Positions 1 through 43,020 of a DNA stretch of 43,293 nt are shown piece by piece. Below the pieces are notes generated by a model, which searched no databases, had not been told where the DNA came from, and was given only the letters and a program-made list of their open reading frames with translations. The stretch comes from an uncultured Candidatus Peribacteria bacterium. GTDB lineage: Bacteria > Patescibacteriota > Gracilibacteria > BD1-5 > UBA6164. How positions within the stretch are numbered: the stretch's first letter is position 1; each line of letters begins with the position of its first letter. The stretch lies in the NCBI GenBank assembly GCA_964522625.1, contig CAZFWS010000001.1, positions 1 through 43,293 on the forward strand, read 5' to 3'. A program made the position numbers and the translations under genes.

Positions 1-141
1 AAAAATATCATCACAGATAAAACCAATTTTTTGATCCCCAATAGCCATTGCTACTCATCAAAAAAGTCTACTTTTCCTGGGGTTTGGAAACACAGATAAT
101 ACATCGGTAATGTAATTGATAAAACCTTTTGAAGAAGACAT
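1..141 (-). CDS. TfoX/Sxy N-terminal domain protein (first 47 codons; gene continues off the left edge)
   Basis: ATG at 141. Translation MSSSKGFINYITDVLSVFPNPRKSRLFGGVAMAIGDQKIGFICDDIF fits the TfoX_N pattern (R.MFGG...g..fa.i.dd). The conserved GG is encoded by TGA-TGA (55-60). Confidence 0.7.
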
Positions 142-497: not shown

Positions 498-547
498 AAT
501 TCGTGTGATGAGAAAATATACTGAACTATTATATATAATTACTTAAA

Positions 548-586
548 AACACCAACTACTAAATAATAGTAATTGGTGTTTTTTTG
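548..586. terminator. bidirectional stem-loop downstream of the tRNA
   Basis: aacaccaaCtact / agtaAttggtgtt forms a 13-bp stem with one mismatch and a 7-nt loop. It is flanked by an A-run on the left and a T-run on the right. Confidence 0.6.
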
Positions 587-595
587 AAAATTTTA

Positions 596-674
596 TGGAG
601 CGGGGGACGAGGTTTGAACTCGCACACCCGAGGGTTGAAGCCTCAGTACACTCACTCTTTTATGTTACCCCCGC
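596..674 (-). tRNA. tRNA-Gly(UCA), the UGA-decoding tRNA, with encoded CCA
   Basis: The reverse complement GCGGGGG-TA-ACAT..GTGT-A-(C)TGAGG-CTTCAAC-CCTCG(G)-GTGT-GCGAG-TTCAAAC-CTCGT-CCCCCGC-T-CCA folds as a cloverleaf. It has a 7-bp acceptor stem, a TTCAAAC T-loop, a short variable loop and an anticodon loop C-T-[TCA]-A-C. G1:C72, C2:G71, G3:C70 and U73 are bacterial tRNA-Gly identity elements. Confidence 0.85.
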
Positions 675-1531: not shown

Positions 1532-1556
1532 TCCTGATATCAGGATTATTTTTTTA
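1530..1556. terminator. bidirectional terminator between convergent genes
   Basis: Perfect palindrome aatcctgat/atcaggatt (1530-1547) followed by a T-run. It sits exactly between the stop at 1531 (+) and the stop at 1554 (-). Confidence 0.7.
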
Positions 1557-4079
1557 TTGTGGAATTTGAAACACGGATCACCTACTATATATCTCTGAAC
1601 CATCGGGTGAGGTAATAGCTGGAAAGATAATATCACATGGTCTCAGGGATGAAATAAAATCAATCGATTGATCACAGGGACAGCTCGTACATGAAGTATT
1701 TCATACAAAGGCACTTCCTCCATCATAGAGACAACTCTGATGTAAGTGTGTTTTGCTCGGGGATAATTGACAAATACGCTGTCAGGACTGGTTAGAGTCG
1801 CATATATATCCATCACTACAATCACTATTCTGAGTACATATTTGTTCAAAAAGTGGACACCCAGCGTTGGCACTATCTCAGGCAATTCCTGGACATACAT
1901 CATCACAATCATTCACCCCATCTCCATCACGATCTCAACCACAACTGATTCATACCACACTCACGAGTAAAGTAGCAGAAAGTGTATTATCGTCAGTATC
2001 ACTCACTACTAGTTCTATTTCATAGGTTCATATTTGAGTAAAAATATGATCGATAGTACTTCCTATACCACTATTTCCATCTCCAAAATCCCATACATAC
2101 GAATATTTACCACTTCCTCATGATACGAGAGCATTCAATCCTACTTGAAGTGGACCCGCTCCATAAATAGGATCAGCCTCTATCGAAACACTGAGATCAT
2201 CTTGTTGACTCTCAATAATAGGACTCGTTCATATAAAAGAGAGGGTATTATAGGTACTCCCTGTATTTCAACACTGATCGGTCACATCCAATCTCACGAC
2301 CCAGTCTCAGCCAGTAGCAAAATCATAGTTATCGATATATTTTCCATATCTCTGTACTTCTTGACCCGTAGATTGGTTTAAAAATCTCCATATATATCCG
2401 TCTGGATCTAATACTCATGATGCACAGACTCCATTTACTTCTGAGCCAAAATCAAATACTGTATCATCTGTGTTTCATAAATCGACATCTGCTTCAGAAC
2501 AATTCAATCACTGCGAACAGGACTCATCATATACATTAATATCTATCATGAGATTAATATTCTCTCATGAAGTATCTGTACTTCCGTCTGGAAATACAAT
2601 ATGGTTATGCACTTCCCCCGTGTTTCAACACTGATCTGTTACTTCTAGGATTACGACCCAGTCTCATCATGTCGCAAAATCATAGTTATCGATATATTTT
2701 CCATACCTCTGTACTTCTTGACCCGTAGATTCATTTAAAAATCTCCATACGTATCCATTGGGATCTGATACTCATGACTCGCAGACTCCGTATACTTCTG
2801 AGTCAAAATCAAATACCGTATCATCGGTACTTCATAGGTCAGTATCAGTTTCGGAACAATTCGATCACGGTGAACATGCTGCATCGTATATGTTAATATC
2901 TAACAGTAAATTTACATCGCCTCATAAAACATCACCACTTCCTCCTGGAAATGAAAGACTATTATATACTTCTCCGGTATTTCAACACCGATCCACAACC
3001 CGAAAAATAACTCTCCAGTCTCATCATGTCGCAAAATCATAATTATCTACATACCGTCCATAGCGAAATACTTCTTGCCCAGTTGATTGATTTAAAAACC
3101 TCCATATATATCCATCTGGATCTGACACTCATGATTCACAAACTCCTTGAATCTCGGATCAAAAATCAAACGTAGTCACATCTGTGTTTCATATATTTCT
3201 GATATCCCCTTCCACACAATTCGATCACTCTGAACATGTTTCATCGTATATATTAATATCTATCGCTAGATTATTTTCCTGAATATCGCGACAATTATTT
3301 GCTCTGAGAATAACATATGCTATCTGTAGAAAATCCTCCCGTGTTACCAAAGAATCCGGATAGAGTTTATTATTCTGTTTTTCAATCAATCGATATATCT
3401 GTTCATTTCAATTCGGATCAACATCTAACAGTTCATACTCGAGGGCTCGTTGAAAATCTGGATAAAATGAATATACGCTCCCATCTTCATTCCGTACTGA
3501 TACATCATCCGATAAATCAGCTGTGATTTGATTATTTTCGATCTGACTCCGAATCAGATCTGCCTGTTGATTGGTTAAAATTCCTGATGCTCTCAGTACA
3601 ACGGCCAGTGCTTCTTCGAGTAAAATCGTATTGTTTGGACAAAATGGTACTCATCATGATTGACTCGTTCCATCGTCACATACAGATCCTGGTTGATATC
3701 CACTCACATATCACCGATCACTCGCTCATGCAATACAATAAAAATATTGATTATTTGAATATACATCAAAAAATGGTTGAGTATTTGCATATGTCTGTAT
3801 GAGATCCAAACTGACATCAGGTTGAATACATTCTTCACAACTAATCTCTGTCAAGATTCATACAAATTCCTCTCGTGTCAAAAGTGCTGTTGGATTAAAA
3901 GCACCATGTTCATCTGGGACGATCGTTCCTCCATCATATAAGAGTTGTAATTGATCCAAATATGGGTAATTTCGATCGATATCTGAAAAAATATTTTCTA
4001 CCTCTAGCTGAGCAGAAAATACTTGTGTTCATAGGAACAAAAAGCTGATAACACAGAATAATAATCTTATGAACATCAT
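1554..4079 (-). CDS. secreted cell-surface protein: signal peptide, SLH-like repeats, 3 tandem PKD-like repeats, PKD domain, TSP3-type Ca-binding repeat, Cys-rich C-terminal domain
   Basis: 841 codons from ATG 4079 to TAA 1554-1556, with many TGA=Gly. N-terminus MMFIRLLFCVISFLFLGTQVFSAQ. SLH-like FSDIDRNYPYLDQLQLLYDGG..FNPTALLTREEFVGIL. PKD signature GSGKYSYVWDFGDGNSG..GTYEIELVVSDTDDN. TSP3-like DRDGDGVNDCDDVCP. Confidence 0.85.
2220..3290 (-). repeat. three tandem in-frame 357-bp (119-codon) coding repeats inside the surface-protein gene
   Basis: The landmark atcgatatat / atcgatatat / atctacatac recurs at 2331, 2688 and 3045, a period of 357 bp. At protein level the unit is ..IDINIYD..CS.G.NC.E.D...GNTD.T.FDF.SE..GVC.SGV.DP.GY.WRFLN.STGQEV.RYG.Y.DNYDFATGGDW.V...V.D.CGNTG. 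Outer boundaries are approximate. Confidence 0.8.
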
Positions 4080-4089
4080 GAATAAATAA

Positions 4090-4536
4090 TTATAGAGCAT
4101 ACATAACAATTCCAGCAGCCACCGATACATTCAGGCTCTCTTTTTTTCATCTCATAGGTATGATAATATTTTTATCCGAGATGTCTAATAAATCTGGATG
4201 AACTCCAGTGATTTCGTTTCACATAATGAGACATATTTTTGTATCATTATGATTAAATAGTTCTCTATAATCTACGGCATCATCAGTGAGTTCCACACAA
4301 TATATTTGGTATCACTGTTGTTGTATTTGTGCTACTGCTTCATTCACATCACTATAGTATTCCCATTCTATCCAGTCTTGTGCTCCCAGGGCTGTTTTTG
4401 ATATATCATTTCGGGGTGGTGTCGGAGTATGTCAGGTGAGAATCATTTTTTCAAATCCTGCCCCATCACAATTACGAAAAATCGCTCCAACATTTTGCAT
4501 AGAGCGGATAGAATCAAGCAATATAATTTTTGACAT
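4090..4536 (-). CDS. SpoU/TrmH-family RNA 2'-O-methyltransferase
   Basis: MSKIILLDSIRSMQNVGAIFRNCDGAGFEKMILTGHTP...LIMGNEITGVHPDLL..IIIPMRGKKESLNVSVAAGIVMYAL carries the three SPOUT motifs. 148 aa, 4 TGA=Gly. The stop lies 10 nt upstream of the surface-protein start. Confidence 0.85.
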
Positions 4537-5255: not shown

Positions 5256-7691
5256 ATGTCAGAAGCTCTTGTTATAGCAATAATCATTTCCATTGGGATT
5301 ATCTGTGGTATCGGTTTTGTATTTTTACGGATAAAAGAAAATTATAAACGTACTTTGAGTCTAACATTTTTACAGGTCACACTTCCAAAAAAAGAATCAG
5401 ATAGCGATGAGCGAAAAGAAACACAAAAAGATTTTAAAGAGATGATCTCTATTATGGAGCAATTATATTCATCCCTTAAAAGTCTCTATTCAAAAAAAAT
5501 ACTCAAAAAAATACTCTGACAGGATACGATTAGTTTTGAATATGTTGCTCACGAATGAGAAATTCGGTTTTTTATTGTGGTGCCAAAACACTATAAACAC
5601 TTGATAGAAAAACAAGTAAACGGATTTTATGCAGATGCGATTATAGAAGAAACCACTGAAATAAATATATTTAAAGGCAGATCAAAATATGCAGCGACAT
5701 ATATCAATACAGCCAAAGAATATTTTTTCCCGATTAAAACATACCAAAAACTCGAATCGGATCCTATTAATAATATCACCAATGCATTTTCTAAACTCGA
5801 AGAGGATGAATCAGCGGTAATACAAGTACTCCTACAGCCTATCGATGATGATTGGCAATCAAAATGTATCAAGGCATCACGTCAAATCATGCAATGAAAA
5901 AAAACCTATTTTAGTTTGAATCCTTTTAAAATTCTTCTGGGTATTTTTGAACTTTTTACCAGCTCATCAGATGACAATAATCAAAATCCACAAGATGATC
6001 ACTCATCAGCCCTCACCCAAGAAAGAGCAAAAACAGTAGATGAAAAATGAGACAAAAGTGGTTTTACAGCCATTGTAAGAATCATTGCTACCGGAAATTC
6101 TCAGCATATGGTAGATACCGAACTGGTAAATATTACGTCTGCTTTTTCACAGTTTTCCTATCCTGAGTTCAATAAATTTACCACCACTCTCCGACATTCA
6201 GAAAAAAAATTGATACATAACTATATATATCGGTATTTTAAAAAGCCCATGTATCTCAAAAAAATGATTCTCAATACAGAGGAGTTGGCCTCTATATTTC
6301 ACTTTCCTCATATCAGATATAATCAGACTCCTGAAATCAAGTGGCAAAATTTTAAAATCACCAAAGCTCCGAACAATATCCCAAAAGAGTGAATGCTGCT
6401 CGGGCATAATGTTCACCGATGAGTCAAAAAAGAAATCCGTATAAAAAATGAAGATCGATTCCGACACTTTTATGTTATCGGACAGACTGGTACTGGTAAA
6501 TCGAGTATCATGCAGGTGATGGCCAGACAGGATTTAGCAAATGGAAATGGTCTCTGTATTATGGATCCTCATGGTGATCTGGCAAAAGATCTCCTCCCCT
6601 TTATTCCCCGAGAGCGAGCAGATGATGTGATCATATTTGATCCCTCTGATACCGATCGACCACTTGGGCTTAATCTGCTCGAAGCCAAAAATCCAGAGGA
6701 TCATGATATGGTCGCACTCAATGCTATGAATATCATGATTAAACTCTTTTGAAGTGAGATCTTTGGTCCGCGAATTCAGGACTATTTTCGAAATGGGGTG
6801 ATGACATTGATGGCACATCCAGAATGATGAGCTTTGACTGATATTGTCCGCTTATTCACCAACGATGATTTTAGACGAGAACGAGTCAATAAACTCAAAA
6901 ATCCTATCGTAAAAGGATGGTGGGATAGTACCTATGCCAAGATGTGAGAACGAGAAAAATGAGAGATTATTCCCTACTTTGCTGCAAAATTTGGTGGCTT
7001 TATTACCAATGAAATGATGCGAAATATCATCGGGCAACTTGATTCTAGTTTTGATATTCTCGATATCATGCAGAATAAAAAAATACTCATGGTAAACCTG
7101 AGTAAATGAAGTATCGGTGATCTGAATTCAGAGCTCCTGGGTATGATTCTCGTCAGTAAAATACAAATGGCTGCCATGGGTCGAGACAAGATTCCAAAAG
7201 AGGATCGAACTGATTTTTTTCTCTATATTGATGAGTTCCAAAACTATGTTACTGACTCTATTGAATCTATTCTATCAGAAGCACGAAAATACCGATTAGG
7301 ACTTACCATTGCCCATCAATACCTCGGTCAATTAGAAAAATCTGACGCACTTACTAAATCAAACACCAACCTCAAAGATGCCATTTTTGGTAATGTTTGA
7401 TCTATTATGAGTTACAAGATCTGACCACAGGATGGAGAATTTATGGAAAAATACTATGCCCCAGTATTTTGAAACCAGGATTTAGTGAATATGGATAAAT
7501 TCAAAGCCGTTATGAAACTATCTGTTGATAACCAACCAACGGTTCCTTTTTCAGTGATTCCTCAAAATCCATATCTCGAAACCGGTGATCCAAAATTAGC
7601 CGATGCATTTAAAGAGCTCTCACGTCTCAAACATGGTCGAGATAAAGCATTTATTGGGAAAGAGATTGAGTATCGGATTGGGAGTATGTAG
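5256..7691 (+). CDS. VirD4/TraD-like (T4SS coupling-protein type) P-loop ATPase with N-terminal TM helix
   Basis: Six track ORFs (5256, 5577, 6108, 6510, 7143, 7485) share one frame and are joined only by TGA. The result is 811 aa ending at TAG 7689-7691. Walker A is YVIGQTGTGKSS, Walker B is DFFLYIDEFQNY, and there is RKYRLGLTIAHQYLGQL. The N-terminal helix is MSEALVIAIIISIGIICGIGFVFL. Confidence 0.8.
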
Positions 7692-9312: not shown

Positions 9313-10404
9313 ATGGATTTATACAGTGTTTTAGAAGTAGAAAAATGAGCCTCAAAAGATGAAGTTAAAAAAGCGTACCGAAAACTCGCTATGAAATATC
9401 ATCCAGATAGGAATGCTGGTGATAACGAAGCAGAAGAAAAATTTAAACAGATCAACGAAGCCTACCAAGTCCTCTCAGATGAGAGTAAGCGACAACAGTA
9501 TGACACCTATTGAAGTACTGGAGGAGGAGCTCAATGATTTGGATGAGGGGTCGATGTTGATATATCAGATATATTTGAGTCATTTTTTGGTGGATGAGGA
9601 TCGCGAACAGGAAGAACTGCCAGGCCACAAGAAATGAGATGAGAAGATCTCGAATATAGAATGTCTATTGATCTCAAAACGAGTATCTATGGTGGGAAAC
9701 AAACGATCTCTTTTGAAAAAGAAGCATTTTGTAAGAGCTGTGATGGAGTAGGATGAAGTGGAAAAAAGACCTGTCAAACCTGTTCTGGAACAGGACAAGT
9801 TACACATACACAACAAAGTGTATTTGGAACCATTCAACAACGGACCGTATGTCATGATTGTCAGTGAACCGGTGAAATATTTGAAACCGTCTGTGATGCT
9901 TGTCACGGGACCAAAAGAACCCAAATAAAACATGAAATAGAAGTCGATGTTCCTGCAGGAATTGATGATGGAATGGTGATTAAATTAACAGGAGAATGAA
10001 ATGATGGGATAGGAACAAAAGCCAGTGGAGATCTGTATATCAAATGTGCTGTTTCTCTCGAAGAAAAATGACTCGCCCGAGATGGAGATCAGCTCTATTA
10101 TAGCCTAGAAATAGATATCGTAGAAGCAGTTCTATGAACCAATAAAGACATCAATATTCCAATTATAGGGAAGCGAAATATCAACATCCCGGCTGGAAGT
10201 AATCATGGAGATGTGATCTCGTTTTATGGAGATGGAGTGAAAGACGTACAAAGAGATCATAAATGAGATCTCCTGATTACACTCACCATTAAAGTTCCAA
10301 AAAAACTCTCCTCAAAAGAAAGAGAGTTCTATGAGAATATCGCAAAAGAGCGAAAAATTAACGTCAACAATAAAAAATGAGTACTCGAAAAAATATTTGG
10401 TTAA
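9313..10404 (+). CDS. dnaJ: molecular chaperone DnaJ
   Basis: J-domain [34 protein letters not shown], a G/F region, and four CxxCxGxG zinc-finger repeats. 363 aa. TGA sits at conserved Gly positions (e.g. 9754-9756 and 9865-9867). Confidence 0.97.
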
Positions 10405-37731: not shown

Positions 37732-37764
37732 AATATAATTTTTAATAAGTATTAGTCTATTTCT
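37725..37764. repeat. 40-bp direct repeat, copy B (spans murA stop to lipoprotein start)
   Basis: Identical to 37172-37211. It contains the last 13 nt of murA (..GAAATAGAC TAA), the 20-nt intergenic spacer and ATGAAAA of the downstream gene. Confidence 0.95.
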
Positions 37765-39011
37765 TTAATATTTGCACCGAGTGAGCTCAAATTTTTCACA
37801 AGATCCTCATATCCTCTATGAATATACTCTACATTGGTGATTTTTGTTTCACCTTCAGCGATCAACCCGGCCAATACCATAGCTGCTCATGCGCGCAGAT
37901 CCCAGCTGGTCACGGTGGTACCAGAGAGTTTTGATGGCCCAAAGATGAGCGCTTGATGTGGATTCATGAGTGCGACATTGGCATGCATTTTTTCCAGTTC
38001 TACGAGAAAATTGAGTCGCTGTTCGAACAATACTTCGTGTATCTTACTCACTCCGGCTGCTTGTGTCATCAATACTGAGAATGGTGACTGGAGATCGGTT
38101 GGAAATCATGGAAATATATTGGTTTGAATAGATACCGGAGTAATTTTCTTAGCCTTATATACTCGTACACTGTCAGTTCATATTTTTTCTATTTCTACTC
38201 ATGCTTCCTGTAATTTGAGCCTAAATGAATAGAGGTCTTCATAACATGCATTATGAATATCGATATATTTTTCTGCTGAGAGTGCTCCCATAATCATATA
38301 GGTCCCTGACTGAATATAATCAGAAACAATACTAAAATCTTGTTTTTGTGGGTGGAGTTCTGTAACTCACCGAACGGTAATAGTATTATTGTATCCGAGA
38401 GTAATATCTGCTCAGAGACTATTGAGAAAATCAACTAAATTCATCACATGTGGCTCACCAGCAGTCAAAGAAATAGTTGTTGTTCATGATCGTAGTACAT
38501 TCGCAACAATCAAATTCTCGGTTGAAGTAACACCAAAACCAGCATCTATATGGAGATCTCCACCTGACAATTGACCATGTAGTTGAATAAGATCATCTGA
38601 GAGATCATATTTATACCCTATGTTTTTTAGTCCTTCTAAATGACTGTCAATCGGTCGTTTTCATAAATAACAGCCCCCTGGCATGGGAATCTGTATTTTT
38701 CACAAACGAGTTAATAATGGTGCTAACAGCAAAATAGAAACACGAATTTTCTTGATCTTATCAAAATCAAAACCAGATTCATACAATTGGCTCGCATCTA
38801 ATGTGAGACAGTTATCAACAAATGTATGCACTACCCCGATATCTGATAAAATATCTAAAAACGTAAACACATCCCCTATAGCAGGAACATTATGAAGAAT
38901 CGTTTTTCCAGGAACTAAAAGTGATGCTGCAATAATAGGCAGTGCTGCATTTTTAGATCCTCCTATATGTACCTCTCAGCAAAGAGAGGCCGGTCATTGA
39001 ATCGTAAACAA
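37752..39011 (-). CDS. murA: UDP-N-acetylglucosamine 1-carboxyvinyltransferase
   Basis: About 419 aa. The motifs are FTIQGPASLCGEVHIGGSKNAALPIIAASLL, ..KIRVSILLLAPLL.., ..GGCYLGKRPIDSHL, ..TENLIVANVL, ..FPGFPTDLQSPF and ..RGYEDLVKNL. There is no in-frame ATG near the N-terminus, so a TTG at 39011 is assumed. Confidence 0.9.
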
Positions 39012-39047
39012 GATATCAGAATATAAGGGAATAAATAACTTTAATAC

Positions 39048-39120
39048 TGTCCAAAAGTATAGTAAAAAAAAATATTTTTTCAATTTTGATTTTTGTTTTT
39101 TTTTCGTATACTTTTGGACA
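39048..39120. promoter_or_regulatory. 14-bp perfect inverted repeat pair flanking a 45-nt A/T tract in the divergent murA / 39166 intergenic region
   Basis: tgtccaaaagtata (39048-39061) and tatacttttggaca (39107-39120). Confidence 0.4.
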
Positions 39121-39165
39121 TATTTTAGACCCCAACTATTACTTTGATAAACTCATTCTACTGAT

Positions 39166-41079
39166 ATGTTTGAAATCGATTCTTTCCATACACTTACAAC
39201 CTCAGCAAATAACTGAAGTGAAAAACATATCAATCTCGATCAAGATCTTGACGCATTTATCCTCCTTCAATCTGAAGACACTATATTTGCTGAATTTATT
39301 GAAAATACTATCGTTGATACTCTCCTTGATACCGTAGGAACAGAAAAAACATACCATGATTTTTGAGTTGCATTAGAACAAGTAAATAGTCTCATCCAAA
39401 CATGGTGACAAGATCGAAGTGATGTTCCAAGGGTAGATGTTATCATCTGAATTCTCCATAAAAATACTCTTTTGCTTTCAAATATTTGAGCTGCATCAGC
39501 ATATCTCCTCAAAACAAATAAAGAGCTCATAGAAATTACAGATGAGGATGCAAATACCTGAGAACAAAAATTTGGTTTTATATCAAATGGTGAACTGAAT
39601 AATGGTGAAATGGTGTTTTTCTCTTCCAAATCACTGTTAAGTTCATTATCAGAAAGTGATATACTCGATTGTGTTGCAAATGCATCAAACGTGACGGAGT
39701 GTAATAAAAACATGCAAACTATTTTCGCATCTGAAGCATCTGAGGAACATATGTGAGTTCTCTGACTATTATTTAATGCTTACGCAGTAAAGACTCCCGA
39801 ACACATTCTCCTCACTCAAGCTAAAAAATATATTCATACTATATGAGATATGGCTGTTGTTAAAAAAGCGCTCGCCTATGTCATGACACAAAAAAATACC
39901 TATTTAAAAAACGATAAAAATATAAAAACAGGTCTCTTGATGGCTGGTATTATTGTATCACTTATATTGCTCTACTCGTTATTCTCGACTCTTATCTCAC
40001 TCGGGACCAATAGTGTAGATACCGAATGAGTAAAAGAAAATATTACTCAGGCTAAAACGCACTTGCGGCTCGCTTCAGAAAATCTATCCAACGAACAACT
40101 GTTTCATATTAATATACAGGAAGCACAAAGCATAGTGTCAAATTTAGAATCTGATGCTCTGTTTATAGATGATGTATCAAAACTAAACGATGACATTCGA
40201 ATACTACAGGGGCAATTTAATAAAGTAAATACCTTTGAAACATCCGTCGCAGATTCTCTTTATACAGGAGATATTTCTGATGCCGTTACCGTAATTCGAA
40301 ATAAACTCAAAACATATATTATTAAACCAAAAAGTATCCTCGGTCCCATCAATCTACCAGATACAAAAGTAGAAGAATACAGTTTTACCTCTCTCGAAAA
40401 AGATGAAGAATTCATCGATGTTGCCGCGATTGGAGATAATCTATATCTCCTCACTAATTTCTCAAAAATAGTGCAATTCAGTAAAAATGGTTATTTTAGT
40501 TATTCTGATGTTGCTGGACAACAAACTTGGGGAAATGCAAAAGCACTCGAATCATACGGGCAGAATCTATACTTATTAGGGAAAGAAGACAACCAAATCT
40601 ACAAACATGCTAAAAGTGGAAATCTCTTTCAATCATGAAGTCCATACCTCACCAAAGAGGATCAATCAGCCCTAGGGAATCTCGTCAGTTTTAGTATAGA
40701 TGGTGGATTCTATATTCTTAAAGAAGATCTCTCTATGGTGAAACTCTTTGCATCACCAAAATACCGACTCGAAAGCCTCTCACTCAATCAACTCCCAAAT
40801 AACTATACTTTTGATGCATCCTCTGATATACAAGTAAAAACCAGAAATGATCTGAAATATGTGTATATGTTAGGAGATAATCGAGTATGGGTATTTCAAC
40901 CGAATAGTAATGATTATAGAAACACCCAATCACTCCTCTATATCGGTCAAATTGATGGTGGAAGCGAATCAATAAAAGATTTTTACACACATCAAGATGG
41001 TGAAATTCTTATTCTCACAGAGAATGGACTCTACACTATTCACTTTGAAATCAGTGATGATCGAATCATTTTACGATAA
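39166..41079 (+). CDS. hypothetical membrane protein: degenerate PP2C-like N-domain, TM, extracytoplasmic repeat (propeller-like) domain
   Basis: 637 aa. ATG 39166 is in the same frame as track ORFs 40063 and 40735. LLLSNIGAASAYLLKTNKELIEITDED and NGEMVFFSSKSLLSSLSESDI parallel the PP2C motifs (vaNvGDSRayl..g....lT.DH and GD.lllcSDGL...l) but lack the Asp residues. The TM segment is GLLMAGIIVSLILLYSLFSTLISLG. Confidence 0.7.
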
Positions 41080-42033: not shown

Positions 42034-43020
42034 ATGAACAAAAATGACGCATTACAGAGTGCACTCGACCAAATCGAAAAACAATTTTGAAAAGGATCTA
42101 TTATGAAAATGGGAGACAAAGACGGAGGAATGAAGATCGAAACATCGAGTTCTGGTTCAGTCGCTCTCGATATGGCTCTCGGAGGATGATATGCTAAAGG
42201 AAGAATCGTAGAAATATATGGACCAGAATCCTCTGGTAAAACGACGCTCACTCTTCATGCTATCGCAGAAGTACAAAAAGCAGGATGAACCGCAGCATTT
42301 ATCGATGCAGAACATGCACTCGACCCAGAATATGCCAAAAAAATTGGAGTAGATACGGATAATATGCTGATCTCTCAACCAGACTATGGTGAACAAGCAC
42401 TTGAAATAGTAGATTCACTCGTGCGATCTGGTGCCGTTGATCTGATCGTTGTTGATTCAGTTGCTGCCCTCACTCCAAAAGCAGAAATCGAAGGAGATAT
42501 GGGTGATTCTCATATGGGTCTACAAGCACGACTCATGTCACAAGCGCTTCGAAAAATCACAGGTACTATTAGTAAAAGTGGAACCACTGTTATCTTTATC
42601 AATCAAATCAGAATGAAGATTGGAGTTATGTTTGGTAGTCCAGAAACCACGACTGGTGGGAACGCGCTTAAATTCTATGCTTCACAACGAATTGATGTGC
42701 GACGAAAGGCTAAAGTAGAATCAGGAACGGGAATGGAAAAAGAGATCTCAGGAAATCTCACCAAAGTAAAAGTCATTAAAAACAAAGTGGCTCCTCCATT
42801 TAAAGAGGCTGAATTTGATATCATGTATAACGAAGGAATTTCTAAAGTATGAGAACTGGTCGACATAGGGGCTGATCTCGGAGTCGTTAAAAAAGCTGGT
42901 GCATTTTACTCATATGGTGAAACAAAGCTGGGTCAAGGACGAGAAAATGCAAAGAAATTTTTAAAAGAAAATGAAAAACTAGCAAATGAGATAGAAGAAG
43001 TAATTAAAAATAGTGTATAA
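42034..43020 (+). CDS. recA: recombinase RecA
   Basis: 328 aa. The motifs are [68 protein letters not shown] and [33 protein letters not shown] is at LGG-G (42187-42189). Confidence 0.98.

Follow-up and report, generated by a model that had tools for sequence, protein, structure and literature searches.

A dedicated tRNA-Gly(UCA) of genetic code 25, with a non-canonical and clade-invariant body, in a Gracilibacteria bacterium

Introduction

On the minus strand of a 43,293-bp Gracilibacteria contig (hereafter the window, meaning the whole stretch of DNA analysed, whose coordinates we use for all positions), nucleotides 596-674 carry a gene that is very probably, at about 95%, the dedicated tRNA-Gly(UCA) through which its host uses genetic code 25. 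Code 25, in which UGA is reassigned to glycine through a dedicated tRNA-Gly(UCA) together with the loss of release factor 2 (RF2), is a textbook description by now (PMC8629427, PMC3812714, PMC13092985 and the gTranslate preprint). The decoding of UGA as glycine has been established since 2013, and the window provides one more Gracilibacteria case. The aspect for which we found no discussion in the literature searched is the architecture of the tRNA itself, which is non-canonical and invariant across the clade.

Results

A tRNA gene with a UCA anticodon and an encoded CCA

In the window, ARAGORN identifies a single tRNA gene, which lies on the minus strand at 596-674 and has the anticodon tca at position 37. 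Its sequence, GCGGGGGUAACAUAAAAGAGUGAGUGUACUGAGGCUUCAACCCUCGGGUGUGCGAGUUCAAACCUCGUCCCCCGCUCCA, is 79 nt long and includes an encoded CCA, just as an initial annotation had read it from the letters, and the fold proposed there is accepted by a covariance model with UCA as the anticodon: in a scan of the local region, RF00005, the tRNA model of Rfam, reaches 45.0 bits across 599-674, against a gathering cut-off of 29 (E 7.3e-9), and is the best tRNA-clan match for 596-674. A scan of the whole window with default filters and the gathering threshold missed the gene. Because the same tRNA scores so well when scanned locally, this miss is a loss to the speed filters and not an absence of the tRNA. 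The non-canonical D-loop and an extra nucleotide, both described below, are a possible cause of that loss, and pipelines that run Rfam over a whole window at the gathering threshold might overlook a key marker of code 25. The minimum free energy (MFE) z-score of the tRNA, -1.78, is unremarkable on its own, and the main support for the gene comes from comparison across genomes.

All parts of the cloverleaf can be placed on the minus strand. The acceptor stem has 7 bp (GCGGGGG/CCCCCGC), with its 5' strand, G1 C2 G3 G4 G5 G6 G7, at 668-674 and its 3' strand at 600-606, followed by U73 at 599 and CCA at 596-598, so that the 3' end as a whole spans 596-606. U8 and A9 link it to the D-arm (648-665), in which Infernal and the MFE fold place a stem ACAU/GUGU (662-665/648-651) around a 10-nt loop, AAAAGAGUGA (652-661), that lacks the GG. 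A spacer nucleotide, A26, follows at 647 in the fold. The anticodon arm (628-646), as drawn by ARAGORN and by folding, pairs CUGAGG with CCUCGG (641-646/628-633) and closes on the loop CUUCAAC (634-640), with UCA at 636-638; the loop C-U-UCA-A-C of the initial annotation is confirmed both in the sequence and by ARAGORN. The anticodon stem therefore has 6 bp, the second of which is a U-G pair both in the MFE fold and in ARAGORN drawings of family members; Infernal offers an alternative in which the U of the stem is handled as a one-base insertion. The fold then gives a 4-nt variable loop, GUGU (624-627), and a T-arm GCGAG-UUCAAAC-CUCGU (607-623, MFE fold) with a canonical T-loop.

Standard tRNA positions were assigned by hand from the alignment and are not tool output. 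With this numbering, the AGU of the D-loop, which Infernal aligns to GGU of the model, is in our reading A18-G19. The tertiary core otherwise looks canonical, with candidate U8-A14 and A15-U48 pairs, G46, A21, a possible G19-C56 contact and a standard T-loop. The departures would then be A18 in place of G18, the extra nucleotides of the D-loop, and an extra anticodon-stem pair that appears to be offset by the 4-nt variable loop.

Near-identical copies and covariation across genomes

We scanned one genome per GTDB species with a pattern of generic features (GCGGG...CCCGCU ends, a YUUCAA anticodon loop and a GUUCRA T-loop, with flexible spacing). At least 119 loci match, and 104 of those listed carry a tRNA of 76 nt plus CCA that is nearly identical to that of the window. 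The titles of all 104 family records read Gracilibacteria, 'Peribacteria', Patescibacteria group or unclassified bacterium, and the members listed include the complete genome HOT-871 (CP017714.1, locus L020) and GN02-872. CCA and U73 are kept in every one of the 104 copies listed. Since no SR1-titled record appears among the at least 119 matches listed, the SR1 tRNA probably differs in sequence. The same pattern applied to IMG/VR returned three matches, none of which belongs to the 76-nt family.

Together with the window, the family comprises 105 sequences, which reduce to 32 distinct ones with a mean column identity of 93%. The window sequence is not found among the other 31; the nearest differ from it by 1 nt (L090 and L101) or by one base pair, and the sole change between it and the HOT-871 copy is a compensatory one, from A:U to G:C, in the anticodon stem. 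On a cloverleaf with six anticodon-stem pairs, the 32 unique sequences put 99.3% of cells in standard pairs. Both partners change in seven pairs (47 cells). This level of pairing and covariation was reached by 0 of 500 shuffles. If the partners are shifted by one to three columns, pairing falls to 27-58%. The first six pairs of the acceptor stem are invariant and 7:66 is G-C or G-U, while both-side changes occur in two D-stem and three T-stem pairs. In the anticodon stem, a single sequence has U:A as the outermost pair, 29:47, where the other 31 have C:G; 30:46, the second pair, is U-G in all 32, and the third, 31:45, is A:U in 25 and G:C in seven, the window among them. All four helices are backed by covariation. 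Given the near-identical copies in other genomes and this covariation, the gene at 596-674 is a real tRNA, conserved far above chance.

The remaining 15 of the 119 matches listed have other lengths and come from other phyla. Some are chance matches within coding sequence. Others are ordinary glyT-type tRNA-Gly(UCC) genes of canonical shape whose anticodon loop has one base changed or deleted; most of these genes lie in Thr-Tyr-Gly-Thr or other tRNA clusters. At these off-clade loci (L002, L034, L047, L082 from Streptococcus sp. LQJ-218 at 596-666, L039, L069, L078, L086 and L116), the genes either have a UCA anticodon, by a single C36-to-A change, or a 6-nt anticodon loop from which one C has been deleted. 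Natural suppression of UGA or of frameshifts is one possible explanation for these genes and assembly error another; one of them comes from a MinION-only assembly.

UGA is used as a glycine codon

With TGA taken as a stop, the longest open reading frame (ORF) in the 43 kb has 266 aa; with TGA read through, it has 929 aa, and ORFs chosen so as not to overlap account for 87% of the window. These frames end in TAA (31) or TAG (7) and in nothing else, and 38 ORFs contain a total of 272 in-frame TGA among about 12,000 codons. Set beside GGA (259), GGT (160), GGG (94) and GGC (18), TGA would be the most used glycine codon of the window, at 34% of all glycine codons. The initial annotation's claim of UGA recoding, with the tRNA and TGA-containing genes in the same window, is borne out by these counts and by the alignment of TGA with glycine described below. 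Its description of the tRNA as suppressor-like is too weak for what would be a constitutive sense-codon tRNA serving the glycine codon that the window uses most.

Two genes with solved homologues allow individual sites to be read. The recA gene (42034-43020, plus strand; PDB RecA matches, E down to 1e-133) has four in-frame TGA, three of which face glycine in E. coli RecA (EKQF-G-KGS, GINFY-G-ELV and, ahead of the P-loop, the G-G-L turn). In dnaJ (9313-10404, plus strand; PDB 6jzb, E 8e-62), 9 of 13 in-frame TGA face glycine in 6jzb, including the G of a CxxCxGxG zinc-finger motif. Over both proteins, this makes glycine at 12 of 17 sites and tryptophan at none.

At the level of DNA, we took 101 tblastn alignments of window ORFs against related loci and recorded the codon opposite each window TGA, a readout that is independent of any database translation table. 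Across 602 such cells, the relatives carry TGA in 262, GGN in 125, a lysine codon in 42, a tryptophan codon in 6 and a cysteine codon in 3, in alignments whose glycine background is 6.9%. In the reciprocal direction, window GGA sites face TGA in 41% and GGN in 32% of cells, whereas window TGG sites face tryptophan in 76% and TGA in 1%. It follows from this exchange that TGA and GGA are interchangeable synonyms and that TGA and TGG are not.

The DNA-level control matters because public proteins of this clade carry W at TGA sites. The HerA/TrwB-like protein of 811 aa (5256-7691, plus strand), which has 15 TGA sites, shows W at all 15 in the public protein collection, and in the same 15 columns its homologues of the same length show W 250 times and G 143 times. 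These W entries are artefacts of gene calling under code 4, not evidence of decoding.

A reassignment of CGA/CGG to tryptophan has been reported for SR1 (Absconditabacteria) and some Gracilibacteria. It is ruled out for the lineage of the window, where both codons align with Arg/Lys in relatives; across all window ORFs they occur 100 (CGA) and 24 (CGG) times per 10,000 codons.

Glycine identity lies in the acceptor end

The determinants of bacterial glycyl-tRNA synthetase (GlyRS) are U73, G1-C72, C2-G71, G3-C70, C35 and C36 (PMC9976931). All four acceptor-end determinants are present, with G1:C72, C2:G71, G3:C70 and U73 exactly as originally read from the sequence, and so is C35. The same acceptor rule was used by Shulgina and Eddy to call the tRNA-UCA genes of this clade glycine acceptors (PMC8629427). 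As a proxy for isotype models, we compared the acceptor and T-arm with those of tRNAs encoded in the same loci (co-resident tRNAs). Only tRNA-Gly(GCC) among them matches GCG...CGC with U73, and it is also the closest in acceptor plus T-arm identity, at 0.78, with tRNA-Cys at 0.38. The glycine identity assigned at the outset is therefore favoured both by these determinants and by the alignment of TGA with glycine.

The expectation that other glycine isoacceptors share the acceptor stem holds in part: tRNA-Gly(GCC) does have GCG...CGC and U73, but in 11 loci it has GCA...UGC. In these 11 Gracilibacteria loci, the adjoining tRNA-Gly(GCC) carries A3:U70 instead of the determinant G3:C70, and the tRNA-Gly(UCA) retains G3:C70. 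In one example, L022, such a tRNA-Gly(GCC) lies about 15 nt downstream of the tRNA-UCA (7422-7497, minus strand).

A non-canonical body absent from co-resident tRNAs

The 10-nt D-loop without GG and the possible sixth anticodon-stem pair, which had been noted as slightly unusual, are real and conserved in the family: ARAGORN draws the 6-bp anticodon stem with its spacer nucleotide and the 10-nt, GG-less D-loop in all 104 copies listed. Co-resident tRNAs have the GG in 77 of 77 cases and a 5-bp anticodon stem in 64 of 77; ten of the 77 are drawn with six anticodon pairs, yet with no spacer, that is, with 26 paired to 44. The body as a whole (six base pairs plus spacer, the U-G pair and the GG-less D-loop) is thus invariant in the 104 copies listed and absent from all 77 co-resident tRNAs. 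Among the co-resident genes, ARAGORN also draws 4-bp anticodon stems, with 27:43 unpaired, in a tRNA-Arg(UCU) of L080 and of L091 and a tRNA-Lys(UUU) of L102. Such Gracilibacteria tRNAs with 4-bp stems are the class discussed in the 2026 'extended superwobble' paper.

Comparison with known tRNAs places the gene among those of code 25 and sets its body apart from other glycine tRNAs. It has the UCA anticodon, the acceptor pairs and the U73 of the code-25 tRNA-Gly(UCA) of Absconditabacteria/SR1 and Gracilibacteria/BD1-5 (Campbell et al. 2013; Rinke et al. 2013), in a host that likewise has dense TGA at glycine positions, and we see no functional difference from these. With the tRNA-Gly(GCC) of related loci, it shares the GCG...CGC ends, U73, the encoded CCA and a similar T-arm, whereas that tRNA has GG in the D-loop, five pairs in the anticodon stem and five nucleotides in the variable loop. 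Where tRNA-Gly(UCC) genes outside the clade have acquired UCA through one base change, they keep the canonical shape, unlike the tRNA of the window.

A 2020 review of non-canonical tRNAs gives 6-bp anticodon stems only for the pyrrolysine tRNA (tRNA-Pyl), selenocysteine-like tRNAs and mitochondrial tRNA-Ser(UCN) (PMC7609411). With tRNA-Pyl and the mammalian mitochondrial tRNA-Ser(UCN), the window tRNA shares an anticodon stem of 6 bp, a variable loop that is shorter than usual and the lack of a canonical G18G19 (PMC7609411), and tRNA-Pyl also decodes a former stop codon. tRNA-Pyl differs, however, in having a 3-nt variable loop, a single nucleotide linking acceptor and D stems, a D-loop of 4-5 nt, a CUA anticodon and G73, where the window tRNA has a 4-nt variable loop, U8 and A9, a 10-nt D-loop, UCA and U73. 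It is thus not a tRNA of the tRNA-Pyl type, the resemblance being limited to one feature, the 6-bp stem.

Genomic context and expression signals

The window is a fragment of a Gracilibacteria chromosome, because its neighbour genes are shared and all named homologues of the HerA/TrwB-like ATPase (best 120 matches, at least 69% identical) are from Gracilibacteria. Next to the tRNA, many family loci again have neighbour genes of the window (g1, g2, g3 and g5; g1 in 36 loci); the recurring neighbours are a small MscS-like protein, an SLH repeat protein, a SpoU methyltransferase and the HerA/TrwB-like ATPase. Nucleotide identity to metagenome-assembled genomes (MAGs) titled Gracilibacteria is 66-81%, the closest of those listed, at about 81%, being the marine MAG of L001 (ALOHA_ZT_17). 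The group corresponds to the GTDB class JAEDAM01 (PMC13092985; gTranslate preprint), and both neighbour genes and homologues point to membership of this code-25 clade (BD1-5 plus Absconditabacterales). From the literature, we infer BD1-5 as the order of the host.

A Pfam scan of eight window proteins recognised a SpoU-family methylase, a TP_methylase-family (RsmI-like) protein, YebC, the HerA/TrwB-like ATPase, an SLH-domain protein and an MscS-like helix protein. By eye alone, the translations also show DnaN, MurA, FtsA, a PilC-like protein and ferredoxin-oxidoreductase subunits. No release factor was recognised by eye among the translated ORFs, a result that covers these 43 kb of the genome.

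Upstream of the tRNA, a consensus scan finds a promoter-like TTGCAA-16 nt-TATACT at 712-739 on the minus strand, with the end of the -10 element about 37 nt from the tRNA 5' end. A looser version (TTGNNN-16..18-TANNNT, within 70 nt upstream) is present in 98 of the 104 copies with a full 90-nt flank, the window included. As a consensus match in AT-rich DNA, this motif is only suggestive of a promoter. About 13 nt downstream of the CCA, a 17-bp hairpin followed by a U run begins (545-583, minus strand), with a predicted energy of -21.3 kcal/mol (z -7.2) that none of 200 shuffles equalled. A simple terminator scan did not call it, yet the fold makes it a probable intrinsic terminator. An analogous hairpin and U run lies 3' of the tRNA in L001, L090, L101, L057 and L020; in other relatives, tRNA-Gly(UCA) runs directly into tRNA-Gly(GCC) and tRNA-Arg(GCG).

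The MscS-like ORF at 662-1531 on the plus strand would run into the tRNA gene as drawn, but homology puts its true start near residue 154, at about 1121 and not 662, so the two do not overlap. Naive ORFs over-extend at their 5' ends because only TAA and TAG act as stops in DNA of 34% GC. The 653-aa murA ORF (37752-39713, minus strand) looks over-extended in the same way, and overlaps a 637-aa ORF on the opposite strand (39166-41079). An SLH-domain ORF of 858 aa (1554-4130, minus strand) is made of visibly repeated modules, contains 36 in-frame TGA, the maximum in the window, and recurs beside the tRNA in many Gracilibacteria loci. The SpoU-family RNA 2'-O-methyltransferase (148 aa, 4090-4536, minus strand; PF00588, E 2e-37) lies about 3.4 kb from the tRNA and has a homologue in at least five related tRNA loci; that it might modify tRNA-Gly(UCA) is pure speculation. 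The regions 25.1-26.3 kb and 39.7-41.1 kb hold ordinary genes and have no Rfam matches.

Discussion

Taken as a dedicated tRNA-Gly(UCA), the gene would work as follows. Transcription would start from its own sigma-70-like promoter and end at the hairpin and U run, the 5' leader would be cleaved off, and the gene itself supplies the 3' CCA. GlyRS would charge the tRNA with glycine by way of G1:C72, C2:G71, G3:C70, U73 and C35. Its UCA anticodon would then pair with UGA and insert glycine throughout the proteome, a decoding outcome that the alignments show, and termination would be left to UAA and UAG. Reportedly, Campbell et al. showed glycine charging of the SR1 counterpart biochemically in 2013.

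Several observations weigh against this assignment. ARAGORN labels the gene 'SeC', which is its default for the anticodon tca. The determinant C36 is replaced by A36, a change that is obligatory for reading UGA and by which the code-25 family departs from the canonical GlyRS set. About a third of TGA sites face residues other than glycine in relatives, as is expected at variable positions. Finally, over the full length, identity to tRNA-Gly(GCC) is 0.66, against 0.67 to a tRNA-Met. Because the full-length body is no nearer to tRNA-Gly(GCC) than to tRNA-Met, the case for a glycine ancestor is carried by the acceptor and T arms. This is not a minimally mutated tRNA-Gly but one whose body has diverged far from standard glycine tRNAs.

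The UCA anticodon would equally suit a tRNA-Trp reading UGA as tryptophan, the meaning it has under genetic code 4 in Mycoplasmatales, some endosymbionts and some phages, and the W at all 15 TGA sites of the public HerA/TrwB-like protein seems to agree, yet it is a product of code-4 gene calling. The discriminator is U73, while the co-resident tRNA-Trp(CCA) has AGG...CCU ends and G73; tryptophan stands at none of the 17 RecA and DnaJ sites, TGG lies opposite TGA in only 6 of 602 cells and window TGG sites face TGA in 1%, which leaves this reading very improbable. A cysteine tRNA offers another route to the same anticodon, since its GCA would become UCA through a change at position 34 alone, and UGA would then mean cysteine; U73, C35 and A36 are three of the six determinants of bacterial cysteinyl-tRNA synthetase (PMC9976931). 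Cysteine identity, however, requires G2:C71 and C3:G70, where this tRNA has C2:G71 and G3:C70, and the 15:48 positions are, by hand numbering, A15 and U48 and not G15:G48. The co-resident tRNA-Cys, with GGC...GCC ends and U73, has an acceptor plus T-arm identity of only 0.38, and cysteine codons face TGA in 3 of 602 cells, so that we consider a cysteine origin scarcely credible. Determinants and alignments together rule out both the Trp and the Cys identity.

Selenocysteine is suggested by the ARAGORN tRNA-SeC label, by the UCA anticodon and by the 6-bp anticodon stem. A selenocysteine tRNA, however, is recognised by a 13-bp acceptor plus T helix (8/5 in bacteria), an extended variable arm and a D-stem of 6 bp that closes on a 4-nt loop (PMC7609411), whereas here acceptor and T helices are 7/5, the variable loop has 4 nt and the D-stem has 4 bp with a 10-nt loop, and the general model RF00005 is the best match of the tRNA clan. 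With 272 UGA in about 12,000 codons, many of them at conserved glycines, usage is also incompatible with insertion that depends on a selenocysteine insertion sequence (SECIS); architecture and UGA usage exclude this identity, whose probability we regard as negligible. It could also be argued that the gene is not a core component of translation at all but a suppressor tRNA of a phage or mobile element, or a decaying pseudogene, given that it is a lone tRNA gene beside an AT-rich spacer and that suppressor tRNAs are a frequent cargo of phages in which stops are recoded (PMC10746230). Against this, the window holds core chromosomal genes (recA and dnaJ by strong matches; dnaN, murA and ftsA by eye), the same neighbour genes stand beside the tRNA in many Gracilibacteria genomes, and none of the three IMG/VR matches is of the 76-nt family, on which ground a phage origin is rejected; a mean column identity of 93% with compensatory changes is the opposite of decay. 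We therefore hold this explanation, too, to be highly unlikely, and return to the dedicated tRNA-Gly(UCA).

What such a tRNA must achieve is to read UGA with U34 without also reading the tryptophan codon UGG. This ambiguity is an acknowledged puzzle of the code-25 clade (PMC8629427), and class JAEDAM01 has been described as a case in which the misreading must be avoided (PMC13092985). In the opposite direction, a tRNA-Trp(CCA) whose anticodon stem is shortened to 4 bp gains the ability to read UGA (PMC13092985). This Blastocrithidia-type tRNA likewise ties the length of the anticodon stem to UGA/UGG discrimination (PMC13092985), although its stem is shorter (4 against 6 bp), it carries tryptophan and not glycine, and its pairing with UGA is near-cognate and not cognate. 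Since a 4-bp tRNA-Trp gains UGA and the UGA/UGG puzzle is known, it is reasonable to propose that a longer stem could restrict reading to UGA: the body of tRNA-Gly(UCA) (six base pairs plus A26, the U-G pair, the GG-less D-loop and C32/A37/C38), and not the anticodon alone, would then be part of the recoding mechanism, and could let a U34 tRNA read UGA without wobbling onto UGG. We offer this tentatively, as an idea with perhaps more chance of being wrong than right by a good distance. We found no paper tying the UGA/UGG ambiguity to the architecture of tRNA-Gly(UCA), and no literature linking a 6-bp anticodon stem to this tRNA, although Campbell 2013 and Rinke 2013, which were outside the search, may well draw it.

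For work on these organisms, a practical consequence is that the contig needs translation table 25, and not 11 or 4. Proteins of the clade appear to be systematically mistranslated from glycine to tryptophan in databases, which could mislead any inference of the code made at the protein level. If the longer-stem proposal were true, the tRNA would be a mirror image of the 4-bp-stem tRNA-Trp that gains UGA, and a parallel to tRNA-Pyl, the other decoder of a former stop codon with a 6-bp stem. The clade-invariant anticodon arm and D-loop provide a concrete and mutable feature with which to approach the question of how a U34 tRNA avoids UGG.

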